NCBI GenBank assembly: GCA_965178125.1
Contig: OZ237773.1
Span: forward strand, 124,001 to 188,000
DNA: 64,000 nt
Direction: 5' to 3'
Source of the DNA: Bilabrum cf. latius
Taxonomy: Eukaryota
The notes beneath the pieces are model-generated. The model did not search any database, was not told where the DNA came from, and saw only the letters and a program-made list of their open reading frames with translations. Of the stretch, positions 26,801-51,894 are shown in pieces (position 1 is the first letter of the stretch; every line of letters starts with the position of its first letter). Made by a program: the position numbers and the translations under genes.

Positions 26801-29800
26801 CACAATGAATGTAGCGTGCACGTCAATCGGACCCTCATCAGATCCCATTTTGCCCGCCGGTCCCGCAGCGCCGAGCGCTGCGTGGTGCGAGCTTGCCTCC
26901 ATCGCAGTCTCCATGGAAACAACCTTCGCCGCGACATGCTCTGCAGTGGTTCCGGGTCTAGGAACCCCGTCCGCTGCGTCCTCTCTCTGCTCAACGGATA
27001 CATACTCCCTGTTCCAGCTCGCGACCATCTCGTCCACGGAGCGCCGCAATCCACCCTTGTACAGGAAGCTGGCTTCCCCCCAGTCGCCCAGCACGGCCCG
27101 TCCGTCCGCCGACATAAAGACGTTGTCGGACTTGACGTCACGGTGCACGACCCCCCGGGACCGGGCGTGCTCCAGTCCCTGCAGCACCTGCAGCAGCCAC
27201 AGCGCCGCCTGTCTCCCCGTGAATCCCTGCCGGCTGCCTGTCGTGAGCGAAGCTGTCACTGCCCCCTCCAGCGTGGTGGGGAACCGCTCCATCAGAGTCC
27301 AGGTGGTGCATCTGCTGTTGATGATATCGTTGAGCCAAGGCAGCATCAGCTGCGTGGAGCCCAGCCAGGCGTGGTGCACGGTCAGCACGTTTGGGTGTCC
27401 GTGCAGGACCACGTGTCCTCGGGAGTCGCGTCTGTCGCCGATCACGAACGGATAGATCGCATCGTTGTGCTGGGAATCAGCCCCGGGATACGCTCCCTTT
27501 AGTGCACCCTGCCAGCCGAACGGCCACACAGATCGGGCGGGTCCATCAGATCCATAGACGTCACCCATAGGCTGCGACTCAACGGCTAGCACCAGGCCGT
27601 TGCTCCCTTGGCCTTCCGGCGCTGCCGTCGAGCCAGTGGCAGCAGACGCCGACCCATCCCAGTAGATGGGTCTGGCTCGCGTGTGCTGGTGAAACGCAAG
27701 GTGTGCCGGATCCCCACCGTGCCTCTTTGAGACACCGCCGTTCACGAGATTTAGGATAGACCCAGAACCGGGACAGCCGGACGGTACTGCGATCTGCTCG
27801 ATGATGTTGGGCTCTGCTACGGACCTGATATCGAGCATTCCATACGGCTCCCCGGGCCTCGGTGCCAGTCTCCTCAGTCTCGGGTGGTGAGACATCATGT
27901 TGCCGCGGATGCGACGCATGGGCGCGCCTCGCACCCTGACCGCGAGGAGGACCCGCTTGGCCCGCGCGTTGATGACCTCGGCCGGGTCCGTACCCACCCG
28001 TGCCATCTCTTTCGCGTTCTCGGCGTCTCGAGTCAGCGACGCGCTCGCTGCCAGCTTGAGACCGGCCTGCAGCAGCACGCGCCGCTCGCGGGAGATCGCT
28101 TGCATCTCGCTCATCGTCTGCTGCAACATGCCGCGGAGACGCTCTGCTTCTGCGATCGCTTCTTGCCCTTTCTGCTCCGTGATTCGCTGCACGTACTGAG
28201 AGGCCTCCATGGCGACCGCAAGGCAGGCCTGGTTCTGCTGCACGGCTGCATTTGCCGTGAGCTTGGACGCCTCCTGCGCCACCTGGTCTCGGTCGAGGTG
28301 TTCCCTGGACATCTCGTAGGCCCCCTTGGGCAGGTTGTCCACGTCGCAGTCCCTGATGATGAGGTACATGCAGAGCTGGGGGAAGCTGGCGCCCACCGTC
28401 ATGGCGTTCTTGAACGCAGCCATGGAGGCATCCCCAGGGATCGCCTCGGCTGGGGTAGTGCCGTCGTTTGCTTTGATGACCGGATCGGCACCGGCTTGCA
28501 GCAGCAGGAAGGCAGTAGCGACGTGCCCGTTGGCACAGGCGTGGTGAAGGGCCGTCTGTCCGTCCTGCGGTGACAAAATGGACGGGTGTAAGCAACCTCG
28601 GATCGGATGGTCGTTAGAATCCGTGGCAAGAGAAGGGCACTACACCCAGACGCAGGTTTGGCTGCAGGCATAACGCCTGGACAAACTAATGATGGTTGCT
28701 ACTCACAGCATCAACTCCATTTACTTGCGTGCCTGGAAATTCCGCAAGATACTTCGCTACAGCCGCGTTGCCACAGTGAGCGGCCGAGTGCAGGGGCGTG
28801 CTTCTAGATTCCTGCGACATGTGGATCCTACCCAAGATGCACAAGACCGGGTCGATTTCGGCGACTCTAAATAGTTGTGACTGAACGGTGTGCTTTTGAA
28901 ATTAAAATGGTCCTCACAAACTCTTGTGCGGCGACGCTAGCGCCCTCGCCAGTCAGGTAGACCACCACTTCAAGGAAGCCACCGAAAGCGGCCCAGTGCA
29001 GGGCTGTCGCGCCAGACTGCGCATGCATACAAAACACTAGAAGAATATCATTGACAGTGTGTGGCAACTAACACGCCCCGTATCCTACAGGATGCTGCGC
29101 TCAAGCACTGGCAAAACATCGGGACTGTCCCTGACCACCTGAGCACAACCAGCCAAGGTTTATACTAGATTGTATTATTGCACGAGATCTTTCTGGGAAT
29201 ATGGTCATATATCTCATACCAAGTTCTACAACTGATCTTACGGGAGCCTATGCGTCCACCATTGTTTCTGGCGATTGCAAAATTCGTGCGACGGCGTTCT
29301 TGTGGCCGTATGCGGCCGCGTAATGCAGCGGCAGCGCACCCGCCTGCGAGTTGGACTCATACATATAATATCGGTGCATAATGACAGTACAACATGACGG
29401 CAGGGGACTCGAAACATGCTGGGCTACACAAATGATTCTCTCACTAGATCAGCTACCCGAGGGCTCGCCCCTGCCTTCAAAAGCATGTCACAGCAAGCCT
29501 CTACACCTTGAGTGGCAGCTAGTGCAAGTGCTGTCCTGCCTTGCTGCGAACGCCAGTAAGTCATTATGTTGCTCGTAAATCGTATTCGGATGTGCGCAGC
29601 AAGACAGACCGAATAAGAACCAGAATTCCGGCCTGGGTACTAAAATCACTTACAGGATCCTTCGCATCGATTCCATGTAGTATCTATATATCTGTCAATA
29701 CTACTTGCAGCGCCTCTGGGTGTATCGCAGCTTGATGCAGCCTCTATGCTGGAGAAAGGTCCCTGCACGGAATCAATAAAGGAGCAATGCCCGATCCATC

Positions 29801-30969: not shown

Positions 30970-31372
30970 TGCCGGCAAGGCGGAGGAGTCGTGATGATAA
31001 TGATGATATCGATGCTTGAAAAAATGTATATTCTGCTTGTGGTTTGTGCAGTGTGTCCCTGAGTAGCATCGCACTGTGCAGGAGCTGCTGCAGCTGCATG
31101 CCTCGCGGTCCACCCATGGTTTCGTACGATAGGCTTGTCGCTCGTGCACTCAAGACATCAAATATGCCAGCGGCTGCTGCTTACATGGGCGTGTTGATGC
31201 CTGTCACGGATCGCATAGCCTCCAATATCCAGGCTGTTCTGTTCGTTGGGGAAATTGGGAATGTACTCCTCGGGGCGGGCGGTCTTCGTCTTCACATTTG
31301 GCTACTGGACAAAATTCGTTCCGTGGCAGCACGTTGGGAAAACACATTCTGGGCAAGCTGAGAATAGATTCA

Positions 31373-34300
31373 ATGGCCAGTACGCCGACAGAAGAACCTA
31401 GTACGGGTAAAGGATCCATAGATTCAAGCATTGAAGATCAATCAGCGACCGGCGGAGCAGAACCTATTGGTCCATGCGCTGCCTACCAGATCCCCGCCGT
31501 TTGTAGGGTACTCGAGGAGGCTCGGCGGATTACCATCGAGGCTACGACGCTGGAGCGTCACAAATTCGTCAAACAAGTGCTTGCGACTTCCAGCAAGCCG
31601 AACGACGGGAGGCTCCTCCGTGGGGATGGCACCACGACAGCGACGTTCAAAATGGCGTGCGCACATGATTCCGGCGCTGCTTCCGCGGCTGAAGAGCACC
31701 CGAGCGAGGCTGTAGTGAGTATTACATTTAATTTAGACGACATGACTTCAAGGCGAGCCCCGATCCCGAGCCAGCGCTAGTACGAGGTGCTGCGAAAGCT
31801 GCCGGCTCATCGGAACGTCGGTCGGCTGCTGTTCGAATGCGTGGCGCAACCCCCGACCTGGATGGTGCATGTGCTTCGCGATCCAACCGCGGCATGTGTT
31901 CCTAGCATGGATGCAGACCCTCATGCACCGTTGGTGCCCAGGAAGGCGCACATCGTGGGGACGGAGTCATTCCCCCGCAGCATGGCTGACCACCTTCTGG
32001 TCCTGGAGCGAGGAGAGGAGGGGTCGATCTCGGAGGAAGCGCTAGCTGTATTTGCGCTTGACATCGCGGCGGGTGTGCATCACCTGCAACGAAACGGCAT
32101 CGTGCACCGTGACCTGAAGCTGGACAACGTGATGTGGGACTCGAAGGGGGGTCCGGAGGGCGTGGGTCGGGCGGTGCTCGTCAGTCTCGAGCACTGCCTT
32201 TCAATCGCATCGCAACAATTTCCGACCAAAGACAAGCCATCGCCAGATGATCCACAGCCAACTGCTGCATCTGCCGCTTCAGGGGAAGACCCGATAGCCC
32301 TCGATTCAGCCGCAGATGGCGGGAGAGTTGGGCCGCCGGCCGACTTCACCAAAGCAGTGCTTGACGCGATGACCTATGGAGGGCTGTGCAGGAGTGGTGA
32401 CGAGCTCGGCGGCAATCAGGCCCACTTGGCCCCCGAGGTCTTGGATGGGTGGAGCACTGGGCTGTCTGGTGATGATGCAGCTGCTGTACCGTTCGGAAAG
32501 CAGGCGTCATGGGAGCTGGGCGTGCTGCTGCACGAGCTGGCCACGGGAGGGCAGCACCCGTTCGGGCCCGACTACCCGATCAAGCTGCACGATGGGACAG
32601 ACATCTCACCTGGCAGGCTACAAGGAATACTGAACGAGCAGGACCCGCTGAGGCTGCACGCAGATATGCTGGTCAAGAGGCCCACGTGGTTCAAGACAAT
32701 TCTCCGCGGCCTGCTTCAGGCCGACCCGGCACAGCGCCTGCCACTCGACAAAGCTCTTCGTATGTTGCGCGCGGCCACAGCCGCAACGCTGTTCGACGTG
32801 TCGAAGGGGCGGGTGCATGGCACTGTAAGTGCGATGCTGCGGCCGCTTGCGCCAGCACTCAGGGAACCGGGGCCCGCGTGCGACGATGCGGTGAACCAGC
32901 TGAATGACGTGCTGTGGGGCGTGAAGGAGACGGGAGACCATGTGGGTCTGATGCAGCTGATGCGGGTCATTCGCTTGGACACTGGAGCCAGTTGTCCTAG
33001 CGAGCTCCCCGATGAAGTTGATGAAGTTCTTACTGGAGCTCGAAGCGAACTGCAAGCCATTTTGGCCGAACCCAGCAACAAGCACAAGTTGACAAGCACA
33101 GTGTGGGCACTGACGGACGACTCCACACCACCTGGCAGGGAATGCGCAGCTTTGGGACTATGGCAGGTAGCCTGGGTTAGCACGAGTAGTAGCTAGCTAG
33201 TGGCTGGGGCTGGGGCAGTTCCAGGACTCGTGAAGCTGCTTGCGTCGGATTGCGCGAGAGAAGCCGAATGCGCCTGTTTCGCCATGTTCAATATGAGTGG
33301 CAGAACGAACGAGCTGCGACTGAACCTTGTAGACAATGGTGCTGTGCCCCTACTTGCTAACAGGGTGTATTCTGAGCAGGGCAAGACCGGGTAGATTGCG
33401 ATGGGTGCCATTCGGCGCATAGTATCCGGCTCTGGTGCCGTCCTACTCGCGACCGTGAACTCGGGCTCGTTGTCGAAGCTCGTGGAGCAAGTGTCTAGTA
33501 GTAATGACACCGATCTGCAAAGAGTGCGAGGTTCAATACGCACGCTAGTCATGTTCGTAAGTAAGGCGCGCTCCTGCAAGGCATCCGTTCGCGCGAGGCT
33601 CCAGGACGCAATCATCAAGTCTGGTGCCATACCTGCTCTGGTTGGTGCGGTTCAGAGGCATGCCGCTCATGCGGCGCCAGATGCGATTGACGCGCTTGAC
33701 TAGATGTTGCTGCTGTGCAATGAGCGTGCCGATTTGCCTCATCAACTCAATGCCTGCAATGCTGTTGCCGAGCTTGTCAGGCTGCTCGGCTAGATCGAGT
33801 GCGTTGGCTTCATGCCCCAGGTGGCAGGGCTACTGGTCCAGCTATCGTCGATATGTGACGATGTGTGGCCACATGTGTTGAAGGAAGGTGCCATCGCAAG
33901 AATCACGAGCTACATGCAGCCCGATGCGGATGAGGGCGATGATCCGGCCGCAGATGATGGGTCTGCTGAGGAGGAAATGACAACGCAGGAGTTTGTGGCA
34001 GCGACACTTGCTGAGTTAGTGAGAGGGTCTGAGGAGATCAAACAAGCTATCATTGATGCAGACGCAGTCAAAGGGCTCTGCGATGTGCTAAAGTCGTCCT
34101 ACGAGGAGGCCGCGCTGTCGGCAGCCGAAGCGGTCTGTGAGCTCGCTGGGACCTCGGAGGAAACGTGCAGTGCAGTTGCCGACCAGGGTGCATTCGAGGC
34201 TATCTCGAGCCGGCTCAAGTCTAGAATCGCCGAAGATCAGACGATTGCTGCAGAACTCGTAGAAGCAGTCCTTGGTAGCCACTGCGCCGCGCCACGAGTT

Positions 34301-37300
34301 GCACTTGAGTCGGCTGGGATCCTGCCTGCACTCGTGGTCATGCTGAATTCAGGTGATCCCAAGGTAGCTCGCTGCGCAGCCAAGGCCGTTGCCGAAATAG
34401 CTGTTTGTATCGATGAGGACGAGCCAAGTACTGGGATTGCATCTGCTGGTGCCGTGCCTCGGTTGCTCATGCTGCTCGCTTCCGATGACCCAGACTGTGC
34501 TGCAGCAGCCGGCTTAACCCTCGCGCGTATGGCTGCCGGATCAGAGGGCGATCGCAAAGCGATGAACAAGGCGGGCGTGCTGCAGAAATGCGTGGAACTT
34601 CTCTCGTTGGAGCCTCCTTCACCAGTGCAAGATCACGCTTTGGACTGCCTCGCATAGTACGCAGAGGCATCTGGTGAGTGGCGGCAATCGCTCGTCGATG
34701 CTGGTGTGCTAACTGCATTGATCCCGGTATGCAAGTCTGACGGCAATCGCAGGCATGCAATTCGGGCTATTCGGCTTTTGGGCAGCTCCTGCCATGGGCC
34801 AGCCAGCCTTGTTGATGCTGCCAAGCAAGCCGGCATGTTTACGCTTCTTGCCGAGCTCATTTCAAATGCACCTGCGTTCGCTGCAGCTAGCGCTGCCAGG
34901 TCTGTGTGGCAGCTTACCAGCTATCGGAATTCAATGGCTGCAATTGTGGAAGCAGGCATATTGCAGGCGGCAGCCAAGCGACTGCCGAGCGTTAAGACAG
35001 ACCGCATGTACTTGTTTGCCATGCCTGTGTTCATTCTCGCAAGGGAGCGGGAAGAGCTGGCAAAAGAGGCGGATGAGCTCGGTGCATTTAGTGCCCTCAA
35101 ATCTATGTTGGAGTCTAGCAATAATAGGGATGTTTCGTTGGCTATCCGAACGTGTTTGGCAGCGGATACGCGCATGGTGTGCTATGCGGTGGCCGCGGGA
35201 GTACTGCCCCAGCTAGTCTTCCTGCTTGCGTCTGACCACGAGGACAGGTCAAACCAGGCCGCCCGAGCGCTTGCACATACCGCACAAGCGTCAGATGAGA
35301 TGTGCTAGGCTGTAGTCGATTCATGTGCCACGAACAGGTTAGTTGATTTGATCGGATTGGAATCGACAGATGAGAAGCTGAGGGGCTTGGACGGCCTTGG
35401 CGTGCTCGCAAAAGCGGGGGATCCTCTGCGGAATGCTGCGGTGGAGGCGGGCGCGCTGGATGCAATCGTCCCACTGATATCGTCCGAGGAGCCCACTCTT
35501 GCATGTGCTGCAGCCAAGACGACTGGTCTTATTGCGGAGGGCGCATCAGACCTGAAGCAAGCCGTTGCTGACGCCGGTGCAATGGAGCCGCTGGTAAACC
35601 TTCTCCGTGCAGGAGCCACAGCGGACCATGGCACAGCCAGCTCCGCCCAGAAAGCAGCTTTCGCACTGTGTGCCATCAGCGAAGGCCATGATGCCAATAC
35701 GGCGGCCATAGTGAAGTCGGGCGTGATTAAGACGCTGGTGGCCATGCTGGACCCGCATCACCTGGATGGCGTCCGTGTCGCGACCGATTTTCTCGAGGCA
35801 TTCGCAGAGCCAGGGACGGTGCACAGCGATGTTCTAAAGTTGGTTAAGTCTGAACTATTTGATACAGACCTCTTCGATCGCGTCCAGCGCCTTCTAACAT
35901 CAGACGATCTGGATATGGGTATCGTTTTGTCTGTCCTGACAATGACCAAGAGTGTGCTGGTTCAGGCGTTTGGAGGTGCAGTGTCTGCCATCGTGAAGAC
36001 AGGGCTGGTGCGCACGCTACTCGAGCTCGTGAATGCAAGCGATACTAGTGTTGCTGGCGTGGCAGCACGGCTGTTTTGTTCGGTTGTGCAGCTGTCACCT
36101 GTCACGTCATAGGGAGCTGGCCTTCTGAACCGGTTGTTGGAGTAGCTCGGGAGCTTGGAGCCCCTGTTCGAGTCGATCCAGAGCGACGAGCCCAGCCTAT
36201 CAGTGCCAAGTGTGAAGGCAGTCCAAGCCCTGATCGAGCACTACCCCGATGCGAGCGGCGCCCATACATTTTGCTTGACTTCGAAGCAGTTGGCAGGCGT
36301 GGTAAGCTTGGTGCCCGGAGGTGCAGCACAGCGGATTGAAGCCGTTCTGGAGCTGCTCCGCGCCGTTCTAAACAGCAAGCAGTCGTTTCCAGAGAAGGAA
36401 CTCGTCGACGCAGGGGCTGTGCTTGCATGCGTTGACCTGCTTGCGCCGAACAAAGGCAAGCAAGGACAATTGTCCGCATATATACTGTCACGGATAGCAG
36501 ATTCATGCGATGATCTCGCACACCATGTGCACGAAGCAGGTGCGGGCGAAGCCTTGGTGGGGCTTCTAGTCGAGTCTGATGCAAGCTCGCAGCAACACGT
36601 GATAGCAGCGATCGGTAGCCTGTGCAAGAATAGCGAACCCAGCGTAGGCGAAGTCGTGGGTGCCGGCGCCATTCGTGCACTGGCAAGGGCTTTGCAATCC
36701 AAGGACGGCAGTATCCGAGAGCAGGCGGCACGTGCACTGTACCACATGTCCCGTAGGTCTACCGCAGTCATGGGACAGGTATCTGAGTCAGGTGCATTAG
36801 CAAGCCTTGTCGAGATTGTCCCCTCTGATCACGGAATCGAGGCGTGGCACGCCATGCGGGTGCTACGATCCGCATGCCGGGTCCCACAGCTTGCTCTTGC
36901 TGTGTCTCGATTGGGCGGTGTCAAGGCCTCGATTTAGCTTCTTCAAACTCATGACCGAGGACTGGTCGAGCTGGCAGCGCAGCTGCTTGGATGCGTTGGT
37001 CGCTAGAACGAACAGCTTCACTAGACGCTGCTGCTCGGCGGTGCCGTGGTTTAGCTTGGGGCCCTGCTTGATTCGTGTGACTTAGAGTCATCCGATGAGG
37101 CTGAGGCTAGCATGGTGGAACACGCAACCGGTGCGATCCTCGGCATGTCAGATGGCACGCTATGCATGCAAAATGCTCTGTGCGGAGACGGGCTCTCAGC
37201 GAAGCTCGTCGCGCTTGTCAATTCGCTTTGCTCCAATGAACACCGGCTCATTGTAGACGAGTATCAAGCGGCGATCCATAACTCGCTTGGGGTACTGGCG

Positions 37301-38137
37301 AACTTGAGCAAGAGGCTTGATACCATGCGCGATCACGTAATTGCAAGTGGCGCACTCGAAGCAGCTCGTAGCGTGCTTCAGCTCGACTCAAAGCTCGGCG
37401 TGAATACTGAGTCTGCCCGACGCTTGATCCGAAACATCTCTGCCGGGTCTGAGCGCTGCAAGCAGGCCGTGGTGGAAGCCAAAGTGCTACCGTTGATTGT
37501 AGCACACCTCGAGATGAGCAATTGCGCTATTGTGCTGGAGACATTTTGCTAGCTTGCTGCTGGACCGGAGGTTGTCAAGCGAGCAGTATTGGATGCAGGC
37601 GCGGTGTCGAGGCTCGTGCAGTACCTAGAAGAGGACGATCTGCACGCTCTCATTTCTGTGCGTACTGTTGCTCGTCTGTCCGCGGGAGATGACTCGATCA
37701 AGACCGCTATTTTGGAGCTCAAGGTGACAGATGGGCTGGTGAGTCTCCTTAGGCGAACAGAGTAGCAGCTTGCTGTGGAAGCAGCGACAGCGCTGGGACG
37801 GCTTTCACTAGCTTCTGGCGATGCCCGCTCCAAAATTATAGAGTCTGGTGCTGGTGGTGCATTGGTGCGTATCGTTGCTGCAGGTAGAGCGACAAGGACA
37901 TCCCCTTCAGTGGCTCGAGCAAGGCTTCGAAGGGCAGCACCCCCCATTCCCAGTGCGAAGCAGGTGGCGGCGGCAACGGCCCTCAGCTCGATCGTGCGCG
38001 AAGATGCGCATGTCGCTGAGCTGGCCGAGGACATGGACGCTGACGACAAGTCTAATTTGCTTGCGGTGCTGAGGGCCATTGGTGGTTGGTGCGTGGAGGA
38101 TCTGGTTAATAGGGTCGAGCGGCTGGGATAGAATTGA
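31373..38137 (+). CDS. PINK1-like pseudokinase fused to a long armadillo-repeat array (2,254 aa, single exon)
   Basis: Ten listed ORFs share one frame, interrupted by 16 TAGs and no TAA/TGA until 38135-38137. HRDLKLDN and GGNQAHLAPEV are present; DFG is replaced by SLE. Many ARM units follow (AGAVPGLVKLL, SGAIPALV, AGAMEPLVNLL). Confidence 0.88.
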
Positions 38138-38453: not shown

Positions 38454-39006
38454 CACGTGCAGGCAGTGGATGCGAGGCGATGCGGCGGCTGCTCTTGCCG
38501 CCACGGCCACGCAAGAGCTGATAGCGGCAACCAATGCGAACGCTCGGCTACAGCGACGGATGTTTAAGCCCCACGGCTTGCTAAGGGACATAGAGAGGCA
38601 ATGGGCCAAAGGCATGAGCGCGTGCATGCTAGCCTCTCTGAAGGACCGTGAGACGCAGAGACGGTCATGGAGGAGGAAATGGTGGGTCCCGGCAGGGGAC
38701 CCTGATGTGGGACTGGACCGCGCTTTGTGCCGGGCACATGCTCCGCACCTGTATGCTTTCTCCCTGTGAAGGCATCAGGCTGAGGGCTTGTGGGGGACCA
38801 CATTGATGGCGAATAAAGGGGACTCGGCGGTGTAGGCTGAGATTGGGGGGCCTTTGGCCTGAAAGGGTCGGGGGTCTTGTAGTCCTTGTTTGAGGACTCC
38901 TCTGGATTCAGGTGATCACTCGAACTCCTTCGGGGGCAACGGTGCATCTGGGTGCTTGTGGAATCTTTACCCAACAATGTATTTCTGTATTTCTGTATTT
39001 CTGGAA
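38454..39006 (+). mobile_element. 5'-truncated LINE copy (last ~105 codons, 3' UTR and (TGTATTTC)n tail)
   Basis: Close match to 50892-51443, with mostly synonymous differences in the coding part. Ends aatgtatttctgtatttctgtatttctggaa. Confidence 0.9.
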
Positions 39007-41508
39007 ATCACGGTGGGAGAGTACCCCAGCGCGCTCTCTGTCACGCTCGTAGCAGAGATCACGAGGGTGCCCATTATGAGCATCGCAGTTGCAGGAGAGA
39101 ATTTCTCCCTCCAGCGCCACCTGCCGAGCTCGACTCAGACGATGGGATCGATAGGGGCATGCGGATGCGTCAGGATGTCAGGAGGACATTATTCCGCGGT
39201 ACGGCTAGCGGACCTGCCACTGAGTATGAGAAATGACACGGGGCTGCGCGGCCCCACATTTTCGTCAGGAAGCAAGTCCCTTCAGCAAACCCTTACATCG
39301 ATCCCACACAGTGTTGCCGAGTACCTTTGGGGCCCTAGTGGTGGTGGAACTGTGCTATTGACCTCCCCGTATGATGCACTTGAACCACTAGTAGTAGGAG
39401 TCAGCAGTCTCTTTGGTCCTCCAGAGCGTGTATCCTGGTAGGGGTGCGCGTAGCTCCCTCTTGCGGTCCTGTCTGGCCTTGACCCAAGCTCCATCACCAT
39501 GAACGATCTCCGCACTTTCTTTGGTGAGACAGGGGAAGGTATATAGGGCCTCAGCCTCCGAGGACTTACACTAGCGGTTATGGCCTTGGCACAGCGCCAG
39601 GGGGGCTCAGTGCGGTTATACCCAGCAGACAAGGAGGGGAACAGCCTTGCTAAGTGGTGCGAGCGTCTCAGCTCGGAGGCCATCGATGCTCAACCGATTC
39701 AGGGCTTGGTAAACATTGCCATCTCCCACACCCACTGTGAGGTCTTTGTCCCTACTGGACTTAATCCACCAGGTGGGAGCAGGGCCAGGGAGCATGCCTG
39801 CATGATGTTACGACCTGAGCAACGCGAGGAGGATGGAGATGCGGATGTCAGAATTGTTCGCACACTGTCGACGAGAGGGGAGCTGAACATGGAACCGGCC
39901 ATGGTCCTATCAGTCCGCCTTGGAGATCAGCGGAGAACACCAATGGCTGGGGCGGCACTACTCGGAGACCTCCGAGCTATGCTCACGGATGAGCAAAGAA
40001 ACGACAGGTCCTGGGTCCCGGAGTGTTTTCCTATCATCGGCACCAACTCTGCAATGTTGGCAGAGAGAGAATCTGTGTGGTTGGTCCCCCCAGGGACAAG
40101 CACGGCCCATCAGCCACGGGGCAAACAGGACGAAACAGGAGGCTGGGGCCTGCACAGGATTAGGGACACGAGTCTTACCTCCAAGCAGGTCCGGATTGCA
40201 ACCAAGAACCTGGGGCGTAAAGGGAACCTGGAGGCGATTGAGGTTGCCCTCACGGAGACCTAGATGCCTGACGTGTTCATTGGCACGGAGATTCAGGACG
40301 CGAGAGGACGCTACGTCACCGATGTCACAGACCTGTACGCGATAGAGACCAGAGCAGGAGACGGGGCCCCGCACGGGGTATGTATCGCCGTTAAACGCGA
40401 CTCAGGTCTTATATTGAGACGGTGGGCAGACATGGAAGACGAAGACCTGGACGCGCCGGACTGTCTTGTATCGGTAAGACTTGGGATCAGGCCCGACTGA
40501 TTCCGAGTCGTTCGGGTCCTGGTTTGTGCTCCCGAGGCACTTCCCTTGAGGCAAGTGCTCGAGTGGAGGCTGAGACGCAACACGCAGCGCCACAGATATA
40601 AAGATCTGGGCACTGGAGTTCTGTTGAAAGGTGGTGCCCACGAATTCTCTGGAATTTACCGACTGTTGGCCACCGACGGGTCCGAAATGCCAACACTCAC
40701 GCTGCAACTCAACGCCATGCGTACTCGCCTGCTTAGCGTATCACTCTTAGTGCGAATGTTGGTTTGAACTATTAACGAACTATTGGAGGGCGTACAAAGT
40801 GCGGCCGGTAGCGAGTTCCCGGGGTATCTGAAGTTAACCGCAAAATTTTGACCCGGCTCGTGCCGCATCCGTGACGGCCTGGGAGCCGCAGCCGCAGCCA
40901 AGCTTACCTTTTGTGGATGCAAGGAAGCACTAGCGGAACCGGAATGCGCGTATAAGTCATGCGAGACCGCGGACCAGGCACAGCAACGCCGGCGAGATCA
41001 TTTTCTCGTCAGCATGGCTCCCACTCTAGTTCTCTTCACAGAAATGAGCTCGAAACCACGGCCACAGGCGGTAGCAGCCATGGTCGACTCTTTCCCTAAG
41101 CTAGGGCGGTCCGCCGAAGGCGACGAGTCGCCACTGATGGTGCGGGTGTTCCGGTGGACCATGCTCGACGGCACGCCAACAGGTGCGCAGCTAGCGTGCG
41201 ACCTCCTCCAGATGACGGCGATGCGGCACCTCATCAGCCTGCAGAACGCGGCAATAACTGGGGCAGTGGATACGGCGGCAGCCACCGGGTGGCCGAGGCG
41301 AACGGCACCCACGGAGTAGGCGCCCGGCGGGCCTGACGTGTCGAGCACGGACGCCGTAGAGCTGGAGGACATCAAACCGTAGTGCTGGAGGAGGCCCAGC
41401 TCGTGAAGTATCTGGTGGCTGCCAGCCTCGAGCTCTCCGCATCGTGGAACTTCTCAATCGCGCAGGAGAAGGCGGAGGCAGCGGCGCCCGGTGCAGGAAG
41501 TGGCGCAA

Positions 41509-44500
41509 GGAGAGTGCTCCGACGTCGCCGCGCCACTACTCCGGTAGCGGCAGCAGTGGGGTACCCTCGGGCGCTGAGGTTGTAGCTGGATCAAGCAGGA
41601 GAGCGTGACCTACACCCGTGCGCCAGATTCCGCTGCTGAACGTGCCAAGGCGACGCTGGCTGCCAGACGTGGGGCCAGCCGCATCGCCGCGACACAAGTA
41701 CTTGGCCGGGGCGGGGCCTCAGGTAGTGCTTCTTCGTCATCGTCTTCCAGCTCCGTTCCTAGAAGGGATATAGCCGACAGTAGGGGGAAAGATGGGCTTG
41801 GACTCACACTCCTACCGTCGAGCGGGTCCCACGCTGGGGTGGCTGTGCGGCACTTACGGGCCCCGCCCAGCTCTGCTTTGCGTACAACCGATCAACTCTC
41901 GGGAGACCTATTGGCTGCCTCTCCTTCAGCCCCGGATGTGCGTCTGCCCTCTTATAGGGCAGATCTGCCGGGGCCTCGGGGGTTGACGCCGTAGGCTCTA
42001 TTCAACGAGGGCTCGCCGGTGGGAAACAGGCAGAGGTATCTGATGGGGATGACGACGAGGGGGCAGCAGACTCTGCGGCTGGTGAGAGCCGAGCACATCG
42101 TGGTGTAGACTCTGCGGCTGGTGAGTGCAGCGCCATCTTGGGTTTACTTGGGATGGCGTGGTCTTGATGGCACCAGCGTGCGCCTGCTGCGGACCGCCGT
42201 GCTGTGGATGTCAGCCTGGCGAGCCCTTGGCGGGTCGCTTTGCGTCATCTAGTAGATCGACTTGGGCTTGATTGGTCTTCAGAACGCCAGTGTGCGCCTG
42301 CCATAGACTGTCTTGCTGTGGAGGGCAGCTTGGCGAGCCGGTGGGAAGGGCACCCACGGAGTGCAGGTGCTCGGCGGGCCTGACGTGTCGGGCTCAAGGC
42401 GCAGTCAAGCTGCAGGACGTGCAGACCGTGGTGATGGAGGAGGCCATACTCGCAAATGATGTAGTGGCCGCCGTCCTCGAGCTTTCCGCAGCGGGGAAAT
42501 CCTCCATAGCGCAAAAACGAAAGCGGCGGCAGCAGCGCCCGGTTCAGGAGGGACGCCGACGTGGGCGGGGAGAGTGCTCCGACGTCGCCGGCGCCACTAC
42601 TCCGGTAGCGGCAGCAGTGGGGTACCCTCGGGCGCTGAGGTTGTAGCTGGATCAAGCAGGAGAGCATGACCTACACCCGTGAGCCAGATTCCGCTGCTGA
42701 ACGTGCCAAGGCGACGCTGGCTGCCGGAGGTGGGGCCAGCCGTATCGCCGCGACACAAGTACTTGGCCGGGGCGGGGCCTCAGGTAGTGCTTCTTCGTCA
42801 TCGTCTTCCAGCTCCGTTCCTAGAAGGGATATAGCCGACAGTAGGGGGAAAGATGGGCTTGGACCCACACTCCTACCGTCGAGCGGGTCCCACGCTGGGG
42901 TGGCTGTGCGGCCCTTACGAGCCCCGCCCAGCTCTGCTTTGCGTACAACCGATCAACTCTCGGGAGACCTATTGGCTGCCTCTCCTTCAGCCCCGGATGT
43001 GCGTCTGCCCTCTTATAGGGCAGATCTGCCGGGGCCTCGGGGGTTGACGCCGTAGGCTCTATTCAACGAGGGCTCGCCGGTGGGAAACAGGCAGAGGTAT
43101 CTGATGGGGATGACGACGAGGGGGCAGCAGACTCTGCGGCTGGTGAGAGCCGAGCACATCGTGGTGTAGACTCTGCGGCTGGTGAGTGCAGCGCCATCTT
43201 GGGTTTACTTGGGAGGACGTGGTCTTGATGGCACCAGCGTGCGCCTGCTGCGGACCGCCGTGCTGTGGATGTCAGCCTGGCGAGCCCTTGGCGGGTCGCT
43301 TTGCGTCATCTAGTAGATCGACTTGGGCTTGATTGGTCTTCAGAACGCCAGTGTGCGCCTGCCATAGACTGTCTAGGGTACCCACGGAGTGCGGGCGCCC
43401 GGCGGGCCTGACGTGTCGGGCACACGCAGTAAAGCTGGAGGACGCGCAAACCGGAGTGATAGAGGAGGCCACACTCACGACGGGGCTGGTGGCCGCCGCG
43501 CTCGAGGCCTCCGTAGCAGCAGTGTTATACCGTTGAGCGCTGAGGTTGTAGCTGGATCAAGCAGGAGAGCGTGACCTACACCCGTGAGCCAGATTCCGCT
43601 GCTGAACGTGCCAAGGCGACGCTGGCTGCCAGACGTGGGGCCAGCCGCATCGCCGCGACACAAGTACTTGGCCGGGGCGGGGCCTCAGGTAATGCTTCTT
43701 CGTCATCGTCTTCCAGCTCCGTTCCTAGAAGGGATATAGCCGACAGTAGGGGGAAAGATGGGCTTGGACCCACACTCCTACCGTCGAGCGGGTCCCACGC
43801 TGGGGTGGCTGTGCGGCACTTACGAGCCCCGCCCAGCTCTGCTTTGCGTACAACCGATCAACTCTCGGGAGACCTATTGGCTGCCTCTCCTTCAGCCCCG
43901 GGTGTGCGTCTGCCCTCTTATAGGGCAGATCTGCCGAGGCCTCGGGGGTTGACGCCGTAGGCTCTATTCGACGAGGGCTCCCCGGTGGGAAACAGGCAGA
44001 GGTATCTGATGGGGATGACGACGAGGGGGCAGCAGACTCTGCGGCTGGTGAGTGCCGAGCACATCGTGGTGCAGACTCTGCGGCTAGTGAGAGCCGAGCA
44101 CATCGTGGTGCAGGCCCGGCGGCTAGTGAGAGAAGCGCACATCGGGGTGCAGACTCTGCGGCTGGTGAGAGCCGAGCACATCGTAGTGCAGGCTCGGCGG
44201 CTGCTGTGAGCAGCGCGCCTCGCTGTAGATGCCAGCTGCCTCTCCTCCCGCTCCGGATGTGCGTCTTGCCCTCTTTAGGGCAGCTCTGCCGAGGCGACTA
44301 GGGTTGACGCCGTAGGCTCTATTCAACGAGGGCTCGCCGGTGGGAAGCAGGCAGAGGTATCTGATGGGGATGACGACGAGGAGACTCTGCGGCTAAGGTG
44401 AGCAGAGCATATCGTGGTGCAGGCCCGGCGGCTGGTGAGAGCAGAGCACATCGTGGTGCAGACTATGAGGCTGGTGAGAGCAGAGCACATCGTGGTGCAG

Positions 44501-45210
44501 ACTCTGCGGCTGCTGTGAGCAGAGCACATCGTAGTGCAGACTCAGCGGCTGGTGTGAGCAGAGCACATCGTGGTGCAGACTATGAGGCTGGTGAGAGCAG
44601 AGCACATCGTGGTGCAGACTCTGCGGCTGCTGTGAGCAGAGCACATCGTGGTGCGGACTCAGCGGCTGGTGTGAGCAGAGCACATCGTGGTGCAGACTCA
44701 GCGGCTGGTGTGAGCAGAGCATTTCGTAGTGCAGGCTCGGCGGCTGCTGTGAGCAGCGCGCCTCGCTGTAGATGCCAGCTGCCTCTCCTCCCGCTCCGGA
44801 TGTGCGTCTTGCCCTCTTATAGGGCAGCTCTGCCGAGGCGACTAGGGTTGACGCCGTAGGCTCTATTCAACGAGGGCTCGCCGGTGGGAAACGGGCAGAG
44901 GTATCTGATGGTGATGACGACGAGGAGACTCTGCGGCTAAGGTGAGCAGAGCACATCGTGGTGCAGGCCCGGCGGCTGGTGAGAGCAGAGCACATCGTGG
45001 TGCAGACTCAGCGGCTGGTGTGAGCAGAGCACATCGTGGTGCAGACTCTGCGGCTGCTGTGAGCAGAGCACATCGTGGTGCAGGCCCGGCGGCTGGTGAG
45101 AGCAGAGCACATCGTGGTGCAGACTCTGCGGCTGGTGAGAGCCGAGCACATCGTGGTGCAGACTATGAGGCTGGTGAGAGCAGAGCACATCGTGGTGCAG
45201 ACTCTGAGGC
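41509..45210 (+). repeat. Nested tandem repeats: ~0.9-1.06-kb units (three) and 39-bp minisatellite arrays
   Basis: MTYTRxPDSAAERAK ORFs recur at 41605, 42666 and 43571. The unit gtgagagcagagcacatcgtggtgcagactctgcggctg forms arrays at ~44030-44210, 44385-44750 and 44927-45210. Confidence 0.92.
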
Positions 45211-45479
45211 TGGAGGGATCAGAGTGCATTATGGGTATACTTGCTCTTGCTGGGGCTTGATGGCGCATGTGCGCGCCTGCCAGTGGCCGCCTTGCTGTCA
45301 AAGTCAGCCAGGCGAGCCGGGGTGGGCTGCTTCGCGTCGGCTGCCACAGAGTTGGGCTTGCTTGGTCTCGATGGCGCTTGGGTGCGCCTGCCATACGCTG
45401 CAGTGCGGTTGATGTCAGCCTGGCGAGCCGGCGCGAGTGGCTTCGCGTCGTCCAGTAGGTAGACTGTTGATAGACTTCG

Positions 45480-46340
45480 GCCCCAACGGCACCACGATTG
45501 CGGAGGCGATCAAGAATCTTGACCGGATCCCTGCCCATATGGTGCTGCGCATGGAGCGCGGCAATCTCCAGGGCTCCACGCTCAGGTCAACCTTCTCCAC
45601 GTGTCGAGATATATCGACGTGACGGGCTGCATCTCCATCCCCCGACACATCCGGAACGACCAACACGGTGATGGTAGGCAGGGACAAGAGGCTGCACGAC
45701 GTGGGCAACCGGAAGAAGCGTGCTCCCATCATCTAGATGGAGCACCGCAATGGTCACAGACGGCGGGCCCAAGGCGGGCAAACCCGAAGAGATCCTTGCC
45801 CTCGAGGCTCCACTAGTGGGCATCGGCGGCACGTGTCGCGGCAACGAGCTGCGGTCCCGGACCATGGATGACGCGAGTATGATGTACAAGGGCAAGTGCA
45901 CATATATGGCCATGTTCTCTCTCTGGAAGACAACAGCTGTAAGGGACACGCTGTAGGCAGTGCTCATCCCAATGGGCCAGACCGCACTGAAGCGACTGGA
46001 CGAGGTGCATCAGCGAACCACGATCTGGGGGACATTGCAGTAGACTAGCCGGCTGCGGCGACGACCCTGCTGACTCCAAGACCTATCGGTTCGTGAATTC
46101 GGACGCCAAGACAACAAAGCGTTGGTAAGCAAGCTGGACGACAGCCATCAGGAGGATGATGGAGGCGTACTGCACGGGCACGAGCGAGATCACGGAGTCC
46201 TTCAGCACGCACTCTAGGCGAACAGGCAACAGTTGCCGCCGTGGGTGTTATGTACAAGCACGCCGACTGGAAGTCGTTGGAGAATGCCGTGTACTGCATG
46301 AGCAAGGACCACTTGCCCAAGCTGGCTGTGGCGTTCAAGA
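45480..46340 (+). pseudogene. Tyrosine recombinase remnant
   Basis: Frameshifted motifs in the expected order: LQGSTLRSTFS, GTCRGNELRSRTMDD (box I Arg), LWKT (Lys), FSTHSRRTG (HxxR), KHADWKSLENAVY (Trp...Tyr). Confidence 0.75.
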
Positions 46341-49300
46341 AGGCAGTAGCGGAGCTCTAAGGAATGAGTCAGAATGGCGAGAGGACAACGGACGGGCGCC
46401 CCTCCCGTCCGAGTAGCATCAATGTGGTGTGGGGCTGCCGAGGCGGGCAGCCCTTGGGTGAGGCTGGTGCGGGCCAGCTCACCCCGTCCCCATCGCCGTC
46501 TTTCTCAGCAAATACCAACCGGCAGGTTGGACAGAGATTAATTATGCCATCGTATTATAACAAATCGGGACCCGGTAAGACTTGGGATCAGGCCCGACTG
46601 ATTCCGAGTCGTTCGGGTCCTGGTTTGTGCTCCCGAGGCACTTCCCTTGAGGCAAGTGCTCGAGTGGAGGCTGAAACGCAACACGCAGCGCCACAGATAT
46701 AAAGATCTGGGCACTGGAGTTCTGTTGAAAGCCCGCCCACCCGTGAGCTCATGGAGGGTCTACGGCAGGACAGACTGGCTGCGGTGCAGGATGCTACCTG
46801 CTGATCCGGCCAACTGGTCCCTGCTTGACATGTTTTATGTGTGATTGATATCAAACCTGCCGGCAGGGAGCTCACGTTCCCTGACGACGACCGGGACGTG
46901 GTGGTGTGGGGCTGCCGAGGCGGGCAGCCCTTGGGTGAGGCTGGTGCGGGCCAGCTCACCCCGTCCCCATCGCCGTCTTTCTCAGCAAATACCAACCGGC
47001 AGGTTGGACAGAGATTAATTATGCCATCGTATTATAACAAATCGGGACCGCGATGTCCTGCACCATGGTCGATGCATGCTGACTGTGATAGCCTGCTACA
47101 ACCCACCACAAGGAGCTGCCCTTGGAGCAGAAACGAGAGGCTCAGTACTGGGCAAGGCTTTCGTGGTCGACTCACATCTGACCCTAGGGCAACGACGGAG
47201 CCAAGGACCGGCAGGTAACTTTACCAGGGACCGACTCGTGATTGCCGGCGACTTCAACCCGACACAGGAGCGGGACCAATCCGGATAGGGAGCTGGCCAC
47301 ATGGACTGGTACCTGGAGAATGACATGGGAATGATCGACATGTACCGCGCACCCGCAGGAGACGGGCCCACGCATAGAAGAGGCAACACATTAGATGCCA
47401 TCTGCATCTCCACATCAGCGCAGCTGCAGCTAGTTTCCAGTGAAGTGGCCCAGGAGCCAGGCACCTACTCAGACCACACGGGAGTAATTACAGACTTGCT
47501 GGTCGCTATCCCTGAAGCGGAGGAGGAACAGGCAACCCGGCGAGTAGACGAGGCCCCAACTGCAATGGAGCAAGATAATGACGCCTCCTTCAGGGCAGCG
47601 TACTCACGGATGTTTGGCATGCAACTGCAGCAGCAACGCCTGGTCTGGGACCACTACGTCAAGGAATTTGAGTTCGTCACAAGCACAGCCCGTGACATTA
47701 CGTGCCGCGTGCTCGACGCAATCCGCGACTTCAAAAGAACGATGGGTACTCCGGCTGACCGAGATGCTGCAGGGCAAGCGGTGACGCAGGCTGTGTCCTC
47801 CGTCAAGCTGCTTCTGCAAGGATGCTTCACTGCAGCAGTCGATACGGTGGCAGGCCGACAGACGACGAGGACTGCACAGGAGGGGCACGCGGAGGTGTCA
47901 CGAAAGCGCCACCATAGGATCTGGGCGGCACGGACAAGATGGGCTGAGACCTGGGGAGAAGCCCAAGCTAGCCTGAAGGCCCTCATAGCGGGACCCGCTA
48001 CTGAGCAAGCACTCTCAGAGGCCAGAGCACGCCTAGCAGCGCATCGCCGAGCCAGCCTACGCCTCCAAGAGCGACAGAGGGGGCTCGATGGACGGATGCA
48101 GGCAACATTCTGGGGTAGCACGGAGGTGAACCAGCAGGCACAGGAGGGGTAGGAGTACTGGAAGATGCTCCTCTCCAACCTGGACCACGACCGACGAGCT
48201 GTCTTCGAGACCACAGAGAGAGGAGCTCGCAGGACGGGCCAAGCATTACGGAACATGCTGGGAACAGCCAGCCCGAGGGAAGCCCACCGACGGATTACCG
48301 ATGCGATCTCTCGGAGGCAACGGTCTGTACCAGGACTGGAGCCGATCACCAACCCAGAAGGAGAGGTACTCATGGATATCGAGGACGTCCTGGAGGCACA
48401 CGCACAGCAGCTCTCTCTTGCAGGAGGAGATGGAAGTGCGGATGTGGACGGATTCATGACCAGGGTTACGCCACACATGCCCAGGGCAGCGGCACCACTC
48501 AACCTGTACTGCAGGTCGAATGCAGAGGTGGACCAAGCACTGGACAGGATCAAGCACAACAAAGCTGTGGGACCGGACGGGATCAGGGCTGAACTGCTGA
48601 TCAAATGCAAGCCCAGCTCCGAGGAGGATGGGCACATGCGGCGAAGCGATGCGCTGCTGTTCCTACTCAGAGCCATCTATAATCTCACCCTCTTCTCGGG
48701 AATACAGCCCGAGGCCTTCCAAGAGGGGTTCATGAGGCCGGTCTCCAAGCGCAAGCAAGGCACAGGAGTCCCAGGAGTCGACGAATTCAGGCCAATATGC
48801 TGGACATCGGCGCTTTCGAAAGTGGTGAGTACTATCGCAAACCAGAAGGTCATGTGGTACTGCGAAAAGCACGGACTCTTTGGACAGGACCAGGCTGGTT
48901 TTCGCATTGGAAAAAACTGTCAGCAGGCCTACTCAGCGGTGATGGAATGGATCACTCAACGAGGAGGGGCTGGAGGTTTCCTGGTGTTCTTCGATATCAA
49001 GGGAGCCTTCGACAGCTGCAAGTGGAACGTCACCGAGGCCATCATGACGGAGCAAGGATGGGGACGCCAGACGATACGCTTCCTGATGGCCCGCATGCAG
49101 GTGGCCATCCGCGTCCGAGACCCACACACCAGAAAGGTCTCTACCAGAGTGCAGAAGACGGCGGGCACCCCACAAGGGGAGATCCTGTCCCCCACTATCT
49201 TCCTGGTACTGATGGGGGTCCTATTGGAGACGCTACGGAAAGAGAGGCTCCAACACGGACACCAACAAAGGATCATTACCGTCACTGGACGATATGTGGA

Positions 49301-51894
49301 ATGTGGACAAGTCGGGTATGCGGACGACTACGTGGCACTGACATCGCAATGGAACGAGGCAGTGATGGTCACGAAGCTAGTCAAGAGCCTGTTCGCACTC
49401 GCCGGCATGCAGCTGGGAATCAAACCTCTGACCGCACAGGGCCAGGGGACCAAGACAGCGATGATGGCCTTTGGCTACGCCCGAGACTCAATCCCTGGGG
49501 ACATGCCAGACGGTGTCGCATGCAGAGCAGCGGATGCGGGAGATGCTGAAGGCGAGTGGACCATCCCACTTGCCTCATCTTACCTCTACCTCGGGCTACT
49601 CATCTCAACTCAATCGGTGCGAATCAGCCCAGATGAGACAGTCGGGCTCCTGCAGGCTAGAGACATCTGGGTGATCGACATGGTACCACACGTGCGCAGA
49701 AGGCTTGCTATGGCGTACCGGGCGGCTAGAGATATCACACGTGCGGCGGTTAACGGAAACTGGGCAGTCTCTCTGCACGCTCAGCTGCTGCACGCAGGAG
49801 CGATCACGAGTGCATTCTACGGAGCAGAGGCAGCGGCATGCGCAACAGGATGGGACTGCTTGTCAGGAGTAGGACAAGGTACTGGCATCTTCTACGGGAT
49901 GAAGCTAAACCTAGAAGTCCTCAGGATGCTGGACAAATTCCTGCTGGACATGCGCTGGATGATTGCCAGCGGATCGACGCAGGTAAGGCCATTCTCCATG
50001 GGAGGCCGATATGTGCCAAGCCTTGCGATGAACGCCGAGCTGCTCACTGCAACAGCAGCGGGACGAGTTGCAGTGAGCCTGCTAGATCTGATTGAGTGCC
50101 CCCTGAAGAAGGGCCTTGACGTAGCAGCCAGGTACATGTACCAGGGCCGACACCTGCAGGGACCACCGCTACAGACGGGCCCCCTCGGGGCCGCCCTGGC
50201 ACTGGGATACAGAATCAAGATGCCTGGGCGGATTCTACATGCTGACGACGCGAAGGACTGGCTGGGATACCAGGAGACTGCGAAAAGAGTCACGAAATGG
50301 AGGCGATCCACGTCCGGAGCTGCGGAACGGGCATTCACAAGCCTTAGCCTGGGATGCTCGCACGATCCAGCACTGTCAGACCAAGACCGGGAGCGCGCCG
50401 CGTGCGGAGTGGTGATGGTTAACCGGTTTGCAACGAAAGGACGGAATGCTTTCGGACCAGGAGCCATGGTGACTACAGCTGCAATGCAGGAGTACGGTCA
50501 TCAAGGAAGACGAATCCTGCGCATCCGAGCTGGACAATACCCACAGCAGGGAACGCCCAACCTCCAGGTATCGGGCACCGCGGTAGAGCAGATGGAGCGG
50601 GCTGAGCATGAGCGTCACGCCGAAACGAAGCCGTGGCAACCTGATGCCGGGGATCAGAATAGAGGGAGGTCGCCCGCCTCTCTTCGGAAGGCATGGGCGA
50701 AGACAGCTCTCGCCCTGGATCCCTGGGACGAGAAGCTGGAGCACACCAACAGGGCCTAACCAATCGTCGAAGGCGCGCTCATTCGGATAGAGCGCACGAT
50801 TGCACGGTCCTCGGAACGTACAGCTGTCAAGGTGCTGGCTAACCGAGTGGTGCAGGTGCTCCGAAACCAGCTGCGCCAGCAGGAGCAGCTGACATGCAGG
50901 CAGTGGATGCGTGGTGATGCGGCGGCTGCCTTAGCCGCCACGGCCACGCAGGAGCTGATAGCGGCAACCAATGCCAACGCCCGACTACAGCGACGGATTT
51001 TCAAGCCCCACGGCTTGCTAAAGGATATAGAGAGGCAATGGGCCAAAGGCATGAGCGCGTGCATGCTCGCCTCTCTGAAGGACCGTGAGACGCAGAGACG
51101 GTCATGGAGGAGGAAATGGTGGGTCTCGACCGGGGACCCTGATGTGGGACTGGACCGCGCCTTGTGCCGGGCACACGCTCCGCACCTGTACGCTTTCTCC
51201 TTGTGAAGGCAACAGGCTGGGGGCCTGTGGGGGACCACACTGATGGCGAAGAATGGGAACTCGGCGGTATAGGCTGAGAACGGGGGGCCTTTGGCCTGAA
51301 AGGGTCGGGGGTCTTGTAGTTCTTTGTTTTAGGGCTCCTCTGGATCTAGGTGATCACCCAAACCCCCTCGGGGGCGACGGTGCATCTGGGTGTTTATGGA
51401 ATCTTTACCCAACAATGTATTTCTGTATTTCTGTATTTCTGGAATGACGGCCCGGGACTTACCAGACTTCAAGCTTCAGCTGCAATGGCCTAAACCACCT
51501 AAGCTCCACCCTGGGGACCCATTTCCCCCTGGGGAGCGTCAGCATTCACGTTCCCTCCAGCGCCCGCTGCCGGCACCCCGTCCTGCTGCCCGTTCTGAGC
51601 CAACCCTGCCTTGACGTTGGCGATCGCCACGGCGAGGTTGTTGTTTTCGGCTGCCCCTACAGCCAGGTTGGCAAAGTCCTCCCGGACCGCCCTTGCGAGC
51701 GCCTGTTTGGCCTTCGCCGAACTGCCGGACTGGTCAGAATTGTACAGTGTTCATTTACCTTTCACGATTAAACCAGATCCGTTGGTGGCCACAAATTTCT
51801 TTCTCCCACTCTTTCGGCAACCCCTAGAATCCCGTGACTATACGCGATCCATAGGTCAAAGGAAACAAACGAGTGAATCGTAGTCTTCTCAAGG

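Follow-up and report, generated by a model that had tools for sequence, protein, structure and literature searches.

The 64,000-nt stretch of Bilabrum cf. latius contig OZ237773.1 analyzed here (the window, whose positions are used throughout unless another locus is named) contains a long interspersed nuclear element (LINE) that is interrupted within its endonuclease by a 6,578-bp element with the split direct repeats of a Ngaro-type retrotransposon (Table 1). We regard the insert as very probably a young, non-autonomous retrotransposon of Ngaro architecture that is mobilized in trans and integrates seamlessly into arbitrary targets, with an exact right (B) end and a less reliable left (A) end.

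Comparison of the repeats within the window revealed that A1 and A2 differ at one of 159 bp and that B1 and B2 are identical over 149 bp, a combination of length and identity that far exceeds chance. Because B1 adjoins A2, the internal junction, GGGACC/CGGTAAG (a slash marks junctions here and below), equals the right end of the element joined to its left end. An A1...B1A2B2 order, with A1 matching A2 and B1 matching B2, is the Ngaro layout; all repeats are direct, and the inverted terminal repeats with an internal complementary region (ICR) of DIRS1-like elements are absent. An initial annotation of the window, made from the letters alone, had proposed both the A1...B1A2...B2 repeats and the junction identity, and both are confirmed. 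Inverted-repeat recombinase arms at the junction (ACC-C-GGT) were dropped as a candidate feature, as sister families do not keep them. Internal duplication accounts for 4,174 of the 5,793 interior bases (72%), and the 39-bp unit is 81% similar to a 39-bp unit of the L123 family. A scan of one full element copy against Rfam gave zero matches. A CCCRCCCRCCC-like motif directly follows A2 (46732-46742) in six of seven families compared, autonomous and non-autonomous alike (equivalents in L089, L099, L101, L105 and L122), and a short hairpin precedes B2 in four of the seven; both are candidate priming or packaging signals.

All reading frames were translated with TAG as a sense codon (Gln; see below). 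None of nine interior frames tested gave a Pfam match to reverse transcriptase (RT), RNase H (RH) or tyrosine recombinase (YR), and four intact pol proteins of the same genome found no match in the element by tblastn, while YR queries do match the remnants. The longest ATG frame, 302 amino acids (aa), lies within the duplicated block. The YR remnant is 35% identical to the YR of the decayed relative L121 (E 4e-18) and 45% identical over 51 aa to that of the intact element L105 (E 2e-5), and a less damaged relative of this remnant gives a Phage_integrase match (E 0.0028); an ESM Atlas search with the gag remnant was uninformative (top score 0.80). The gag remnant lies on the 5′ side and the YR remnant just before B1, both on the plus strand, which is the Ngaro order and that of the intact relatives; the intact gag, RT/RH and YR open reading frames (ORFs) of an autonomous Ngaro are lacking. 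With no RT/RH and with gag and YR broken, the element is, as read from its sequence, a non-autonomous derivative with Ngaro gene order, and an autonomous element is ruled out. The proposal of a Ngaro-type element thus stands for the split-direct-repeat YR architecture, with the qualification that the element is non-autonomous, lacks RT/RH and keeps gag and YR only as broken remnants.

The LINE (about 39008-51441) forms a single frame with endonuclease and RT; RVT_1 is matched at about 48777-49412 (E 3.4e-16), and an Exo_endo_phos_2 match in the 3′ part (E 0.0019) falls below the cut-off. The flanks read ...cttgtat/gcgatgtcc..., and the frame APDCLV-CDVLHHGRC is continuous across the element. 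Searching the genome with the left flank returned 15 matches (all 15 scored). One is the window itself, and all 14 other LINE copies are uninterrupted across the site with no base extra or missing. The two closest (97-99%) show the exact cttgtat/gcgatg join, and the other 12 (84-85%) read ctcgtat/gtgacg, thus indicating that no bases were duplicated or lost upon insertion. The initial annotation had predicted the restored join and frame on removal of 40472-47049 as well as the lack of a duplication, and both predictions are borne out. Its further claim that one retroelement had disabled the other is not established: the LINE carries an additional in-frame TAA at 50757-50759, a position at which its two closest relatives among the LINE copies read AAG. 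Its divergence from these two, 1.4-1.8%, is about 30 times that among copies of the element (about 0.05%). The LINE may have been dead already before the insertion. Directly upstream, in head-to-tail orientation, this LINE family is represented once more by a 3′ fragment of 553 bp (38455-39006; 92% to 50892-51444), and the LINE ends in short TGTATTTC repeats.

Table 1. Features of the interrupted LINE and of the inserted element (window positions, unless a locus is given)
Feature	Position	Strand	Remarks
LINE 5′ part, including first half of endonuclease	39008-40471	+	paralogue comparison
Non-autonomous split-direct-repeat element, whole	40472-47049	+	6,578 bp; belongs to a set of 10 near-identical copies
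A1 repeat	40472-40630	+	159 bp
gag (ORF1) remnant	40930-41232	+	34% identity over 101 aa to ORF1 of decayed relative L121 (C32), E 2.5e-10
Internally duplicated block in place of most of gag and all of pol	41292-45465	+	1061/905-bp triplication, ~350-540-bp repeats, 39-bp arrays
~114-bp units of module common to two other non-autonomous families	42146-42346; again 43207-43375	+	repeat comparison
39-bp tandem array	44382-45213	+	21.4 units by TRF; further 4.4 units at 44032-44203
Two 111-bp units of shared ~112-bp module	45239-45460	+	73-83% to arrays of L122/L123 and L166 families
YR remnant, three frames	45656-46345	+	frameshifts, stop, deletion; box-II-like STHS-RRTG at 46201
B1 repeat	46424-46572	+	149 bp
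A2 repeat	46573-46731	+	159 bp; B1/A2 is the template for the circle junction
A2-B2 spacer	46732-46900	+	starts with CCCRCCCRCCC-like motif
B2 repeat	46901-47049	+	149 bp; exact right end
LINE 3′ part: rest of endonuclease, RT, premature TAA	47050-51441	+	family scans, paralogue comparison
TAG-as-sense frames	31007-38137; 38863-40471; 47019-50759; L137:3240-4595		

Copies and target sites

A genome-wide search with the A and B repeats, as the initial annotation had suggested, revealed nine further 6,578-bp copies at unrelated sites, all bounded by A and B, each with a different flank and 99.89-99.95% identical. Beyond the first 20 bases the ten copies have 16 variable sites and a mean of 3.2 differences, and five are identical, which indicates a recent spread. 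Multiple recent copies (here ten at 99.9%) with intact ends and no coding capacity are characteristic of a non-autonomous Ngaro-N element. Other forms occur as single copies, namely older variants (6,221 and 4,764 bp), a mini copy of 1,017 bp, a form with an A-B deletion, and the solo A-B forms. In one copy (L055), A1 and A2 share a private change at A position 111, as predicted if a single template yields both repeats in each round (PMC6681497). Between 77 and 97% of the words of the element's 3′ part are present in nine sequencing runs from four studies, and none of the runs listed is recorded as RNA; a circle and the internal B1/A2 junction are indistinguishable in short contigs.

The targets of the ten young copies are mostly coding. 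One copy lies in this LINE, which is one chance target among them, one in a further frame of retroelement-like character and one in the tandem array of a sister element. A KTR-like glycosyltransferase gene (PF01793, E 6.5e-5), two genes of a duplicated host family and two long host frames received a copy each, as did a chromodomain gene in a Polinton/virophage-like element and one unresolved site. The initial annotation had suggested deriving a target consensus and had noted that a short target identity is usual in DIRS-group integration. No consensus emerged over 13 sites, and identity of the target to the junction was not significant at positions +1 to +3 (16/39, 11.0 expected, p=0.056) or -3 to -1 (10/39, p=0.64). 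In the literature consulted, an identity of 3 bp with the target is tied to DIRS1-like elements, which have inverted repeats, and is not shown for Ngaro; it is not seen here. In a table for Ectocarpus, the target-site duplication (TSD) is given as 0 in all 14 complete Ngaro and PAT-like families (PMC12477816), indicating that the absence of a duplication is normal.

The Polinton/virophage-like element (G000:C27, about 152800-167000; L104, L130 and L131) has about 47% GC and is interrupted by one element copy. It carries pPolB (PF03175, E 3.5e-9), D5-like and chromodomain genes, and five of its long frames lack TAG. It was not found in the contigs of three of four runs, although contigs show presence rather than absence. 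Beside a sister-family element on C43, an array with a 131-bp unit extends over more than 10 kb and holds a copy of the element.

Integration junctions

Both ends could be scored in 13 copies of the element family and in seven copies of L166, a second non-autonomous family (two more L166-family copies without a right end in the stretch were left out, and the 12-copy L168 family is not part of the counts). The right end is exact in 13/13 and 7/7 copies, respectively, and the left end in 10/13 and 5/7. For both families combined, the right end is exact in all 20 copies and the left end is altered in five, four of which carry a 1-7-bp copy of target sequence. The lack of a TSD that typifies Ngaro elements thus holds in the element family with exceptions in three of its 13 copies.

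In two of these exceptions (copies C27 and C9), the first base of A1 is A instead of C, while A2 retains C and the right flank starts with A. The left A is read as an extra copy of the target base, since the coding frames are in phase only in this way; the base is also present in short-read contigs. The third (copy C38) has lost 19-20 bases of A1 and has, on its left side, a second copy of 5-6 target bases that lie to the right of the cut, a reading confirmed by the glycosyltransferase frame. In the L166 family, one altered left end has lost 24 bases and gained a 6-7-bp target copy, and the other has lost 74 bases without a copy. Neither end is altered in three L105, two L122/L123 and two L089-type copies, and one L123-type copy has no recognizable A1.

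This asymmetry leads us to suggest, tentatively, that the B end might be joined first and exactly and that the A end might be finished by a less reliable repair step, which would fit the mostly linear, single-stranded cDNA reported for DIRS-1 (PMC7192593). About as likely, and held with the same reserve, is that YR recombination takes its ordinary two-strand course on a double-stranded circle whose overlap is mismatched, in which case the left-end changes would be later repair scars or chance. This is the standard model for the order, and both ends are indeed exact in 15 of the 20 copies. YRs typically act with a stagger that agrees in size with the duplications of 5-7 bp. However, a mismatched overlap that is resolved by replication should yield, with about equal frequency, copies with target bases on the left and element bases on the right, a combination seen in 0/13 copies (a one-base swap would be invisible at the four sites whose target starts with C), and all five altered junctions are left ends. 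The mostly linear, single-stranded form reported for DIRS-1 cDNA also speaks against this alternative.

Relatives and candidate helpers

Intact split-repeat gag-RT/RH-YR elements are present in the genome (L099, L101, L105/L125 and L168; L100 and L103 are less fully delimited). The intact YRs closest to the remnant are those of L105 (28%, E 3e-11) and then L101; L105 has three copies, one with a frameshifted pol. A search for an intact parent using A, B, both interior ends and the YR remnants returned none with matching ends (the counts are lower bounds), and no intact split-repeat element matched the ends at the DNA level. The ends of the non-autonomous L166 family are 88-97% identical to those of L105, which makes trans-mobilization by L105 credible in this genome. 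A helper for the present element would most plausibly be L105 or L101, to judge from their YRs.

No Dam methyltransferase, which PAT-like elements carry in pol, was detected in the pol of five relatives or genome-wide (0 candidates; the control was positive in E. coli only, and a divergent methylase could escape). The pol of L105 stops about 90 aa past RNase H, leaving little room for one. The lack of this enzyme fits Ngaro, which has none, better than DIRS1 or PAT. A PAT-like or VIPER-like origin is therefore improbable, even though A...BAB repeats are common to all three groups, the non-autonomous PAT-N1 of Ectocarpus also has tandem repeats (PMC12477816) and the order already counts TOC1 among its non-autonomous members. 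Besides the missing methyltransferase, the relatives' order of gag, RT/RH and YR on one strand is that described for Ngaro. That the copies arose by DNA-level segmental duplication or as an assembly artefact, as their very high identity might suggest, is next to impossible: identity ends exactly at the element ends and all flanks differ, the insertions split reading frames of unrelated genes, solo and deleted forms occur, the C9 junction appears as a loose end in another sample (X1), and in run X5 contigs of the interior are about 12-fold deeper than flank contigs, although contig depth does not give a true copy number and this run may derive from the source sample.

As its sequence shows, the element descends from a gag-RT/RH-YR ancestor related to L121 (C32) and the L105 family; it lost pol, suffered breaks in gag and YR and refilled its interior with tandem duplications. 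A life cycle is proposed in which transcription, reverse transcription and packaging would be carried out in trans by the proteins of an intact family. According to the established model, the internal B1/A2 copy would regenerate the B/A junction, and A1 and A2 would be reset to identity in each round. A borrowed YR, presumably acting on a circle, would then join the B/A junction to an essentially arbitrary target, with the outcome seen at the insertion sites, namely neither sequence identity nor duplication. The B end would always be joined exactly and the A end completed less reliably; in about a quarter of copies the A end carries a patch of 1-7 bases copied from immediately to the right of the cut, lacks its first bases, or both.

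Several points weigh against this picture of a trans-mobilized Ngaro element with arbitrary targets. The left-end pattern amounts to five events, one of which (L167) lacks a duplication, and there may be a weak preference for G at +3 (7/13). No intact element has the same A/B ends among 40 scored candidates each for A and B, so that a helper shares at most short motifs with the ends of the element. The circle, the cDNA and the transcript are presumed components of the scheme. Membership of Ngaro in the strict sense is provisional, and homologue searches to name the relatives returned unnamed proteins only.

Among the relatives, L168 (G000:C1:411586-419900) represents an apparently intact split-direct-repeat family of at least 12 copies. 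In an old relative of the element, a solo repeat of the L099 family is inserted into the YR remnant (L086:1279-1740). AT-rich sequence lies within or beside the ends of L100 (near 1400-2100 and 9300-9900), which suggests a second virus-like, low-GC insertion.

A repeat module shared by non-autonomous families

The ~112-bp unit of the element (three blocks, Table 1) is 70-83% similar to the arrays of L122/L123/L178 (20-34 units) and of the L166 family (16-45 units), and the three non-autonomous families that contain it have ends unrelated to each other. The unit was not found in L105 or six other coding elements (best nhmmer E 0.13 over seven coding and three non-coding relatives). It has 139 matches in the genome, and every locus inspected was such a derivative (L177 and L179 are incomplete). 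Template switching would be the simplest account of the transfer of the module. Derivatives that have multiplied measure 6.1-8.8 kb and coding relatives 6.9-7.7 kb or more, and short derivatives are single-copy. An origin of the unit from the start of pol was rejected because the match is too weak (blastp E 0.08). A conserved RNA hairpin is not supported: the fold fits 18 units with only one of 27 pairs compensatory, and folding z-scores in five units range from -3.9 to +1.0.

The second young non-autonomous family (L166, L167 and L170-L176) has at least nine copies of 6.6-8.8 kb that are 99.3-100% identical in the 3′ part and whose 112-bp and 107-bp arrays vary in copy number. A sister non-autonomous family (L047, L087, L088, L089 and L144) has a B repeat about 75% similar to that of the element and 55-, 86- and 130-bp arrays, which are a possible source of satellite DNA.

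A more far-reaching model combines module and junctions, and we consider it doubtful. Ngaro integration would proceed one end first, by a single strand exchange at B with any target, as would suit a single-stranded cDNA substrate, and the A end would be finished by host repair or replication, slips giving rise to the 1-7-bp copies and 5′ losses. The ~112-bp module would be cis-acting, traded and tandem-amplified among non-autonomous Ngaros, keeping their size near the 6-8 kb of their helpers and serving as a parasite-specific aid to packaging or expression. No description of left-end duplications or of a shared repeat module in Ngaro-type elements was found in the literature searched, which is not proof that they are unpublished.

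Genetic code and neighboring frames

The YR matches in several copies contain no stops other than TAG, and several apparent stops of the LINE are likewise TAG; with TAG read as sense, an uninterrupted LINE copy is one 2,547-codon frame with 17 TAGs. When TAG is read as Gln, the LINE frame is also joined and the window shows an open host frame of 2,376 aa that includes 18 TAGs. In 13 of 24 distinct paralogue cases, the codon exchanged with TAG is one for Gln (CAG 11, CAA 2), and Glu (2) and Lys (2) come next, some rows of this count lying outside true coding parts. At the first TAG of a Vps4 gene, Gln is the top residue (35 of 120 homologues); at the second, 108 of 120 have Lys and 11 Gln. Long frames end in TGA or TAA. 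From these comparisons TAG is evidently a sense codon genome-wide, with TAA and TGA remaining stops, and most likely encodes Gln. A search with one narrow 13-base pattern for tRNA-Gln(CUA) gave a single match that is not a tRNA, which is no evidence of absence. Reassignment of UAG alone to Gln is listed for Iotanema and some ciliates, and no stramenopile case was found in the literature searched; the present one is possibly an unreported instance. Reading TAG as sense makes standard-code gene and transposable element calls in this genome wrong, and our own standard-code ORF reading was dropped for this reason. To judge from their translations, the large proteins of 23804-28702 (-) and 31007-38137 (+) have segments that look kinase-like and others that resemble ankyrin or armadillo repeats.

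Comparison with known systems

The insertion itself is ordinary. Its value lies in several very young YR families (99.9-100%) with empty sites that can be reconstructed from paralogues and reading frames. Integration by the DIRS-1 recombinase is stated not to have been tested experimentally (PMC7192593), and the left-right asymmetry provides a concrete, countable prediction on integration by Ngaro/DIRS recombinases. The ~112-bp module is a candidate cis element for the parasitism of YR retrotransposons.

DIRS1-like elements resemble the present element as YR retrotransposons without a TSD and with an internal copy of the circle junction; their inverted repeats with ICR, methyltransferase and 3-bp target identity have no counterpart in it. 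TOC1 of Chlamydomonas and PAT-N1_Ec32 are likewise non-autonomous members of the DIRS order, the latter with split and tandem repeats. TOC1 has split repeats and a 76-bp array. Both are assigned to the PAT side, whereas the relatives of the present element have no methyltransferase.

Ngaro types 1-4 of Cafeteria burkhardae (A1-[ORFs]-B1A2B2, about 6-7 kb, with solo AB repeats and ORF1-deleted variants; PMC8547959) are similar in repeat layout, size and solo A-B forms, but carry RT/RH and YR, whereas the present element has no pol and a broken YR. They occur occasionally in endogenous virophages, and for types 1 and 2a 82-91% lie in virus-like elements (PMC8547959). The parallel drawn to these virophage insertions in the initial annotation is weak, given that one of ten young copies here lies in a Polinton/virophage-like element.

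The closest counterpart by description is Ngaro-N1_Ec32 (A-int-BAB; PMC12477816, supplementary file 1), which is likewise non-autonomous and large (7,756 versus 6,578 bp), with split repeats, a variable internal tandem repeat and a TSD of 0. Its table rows do not mention a junction asymmetry or a repeat module shared between families. By this analogy the non-autonomous Ngaro type is already known, and the element described here appears as a new member of it.

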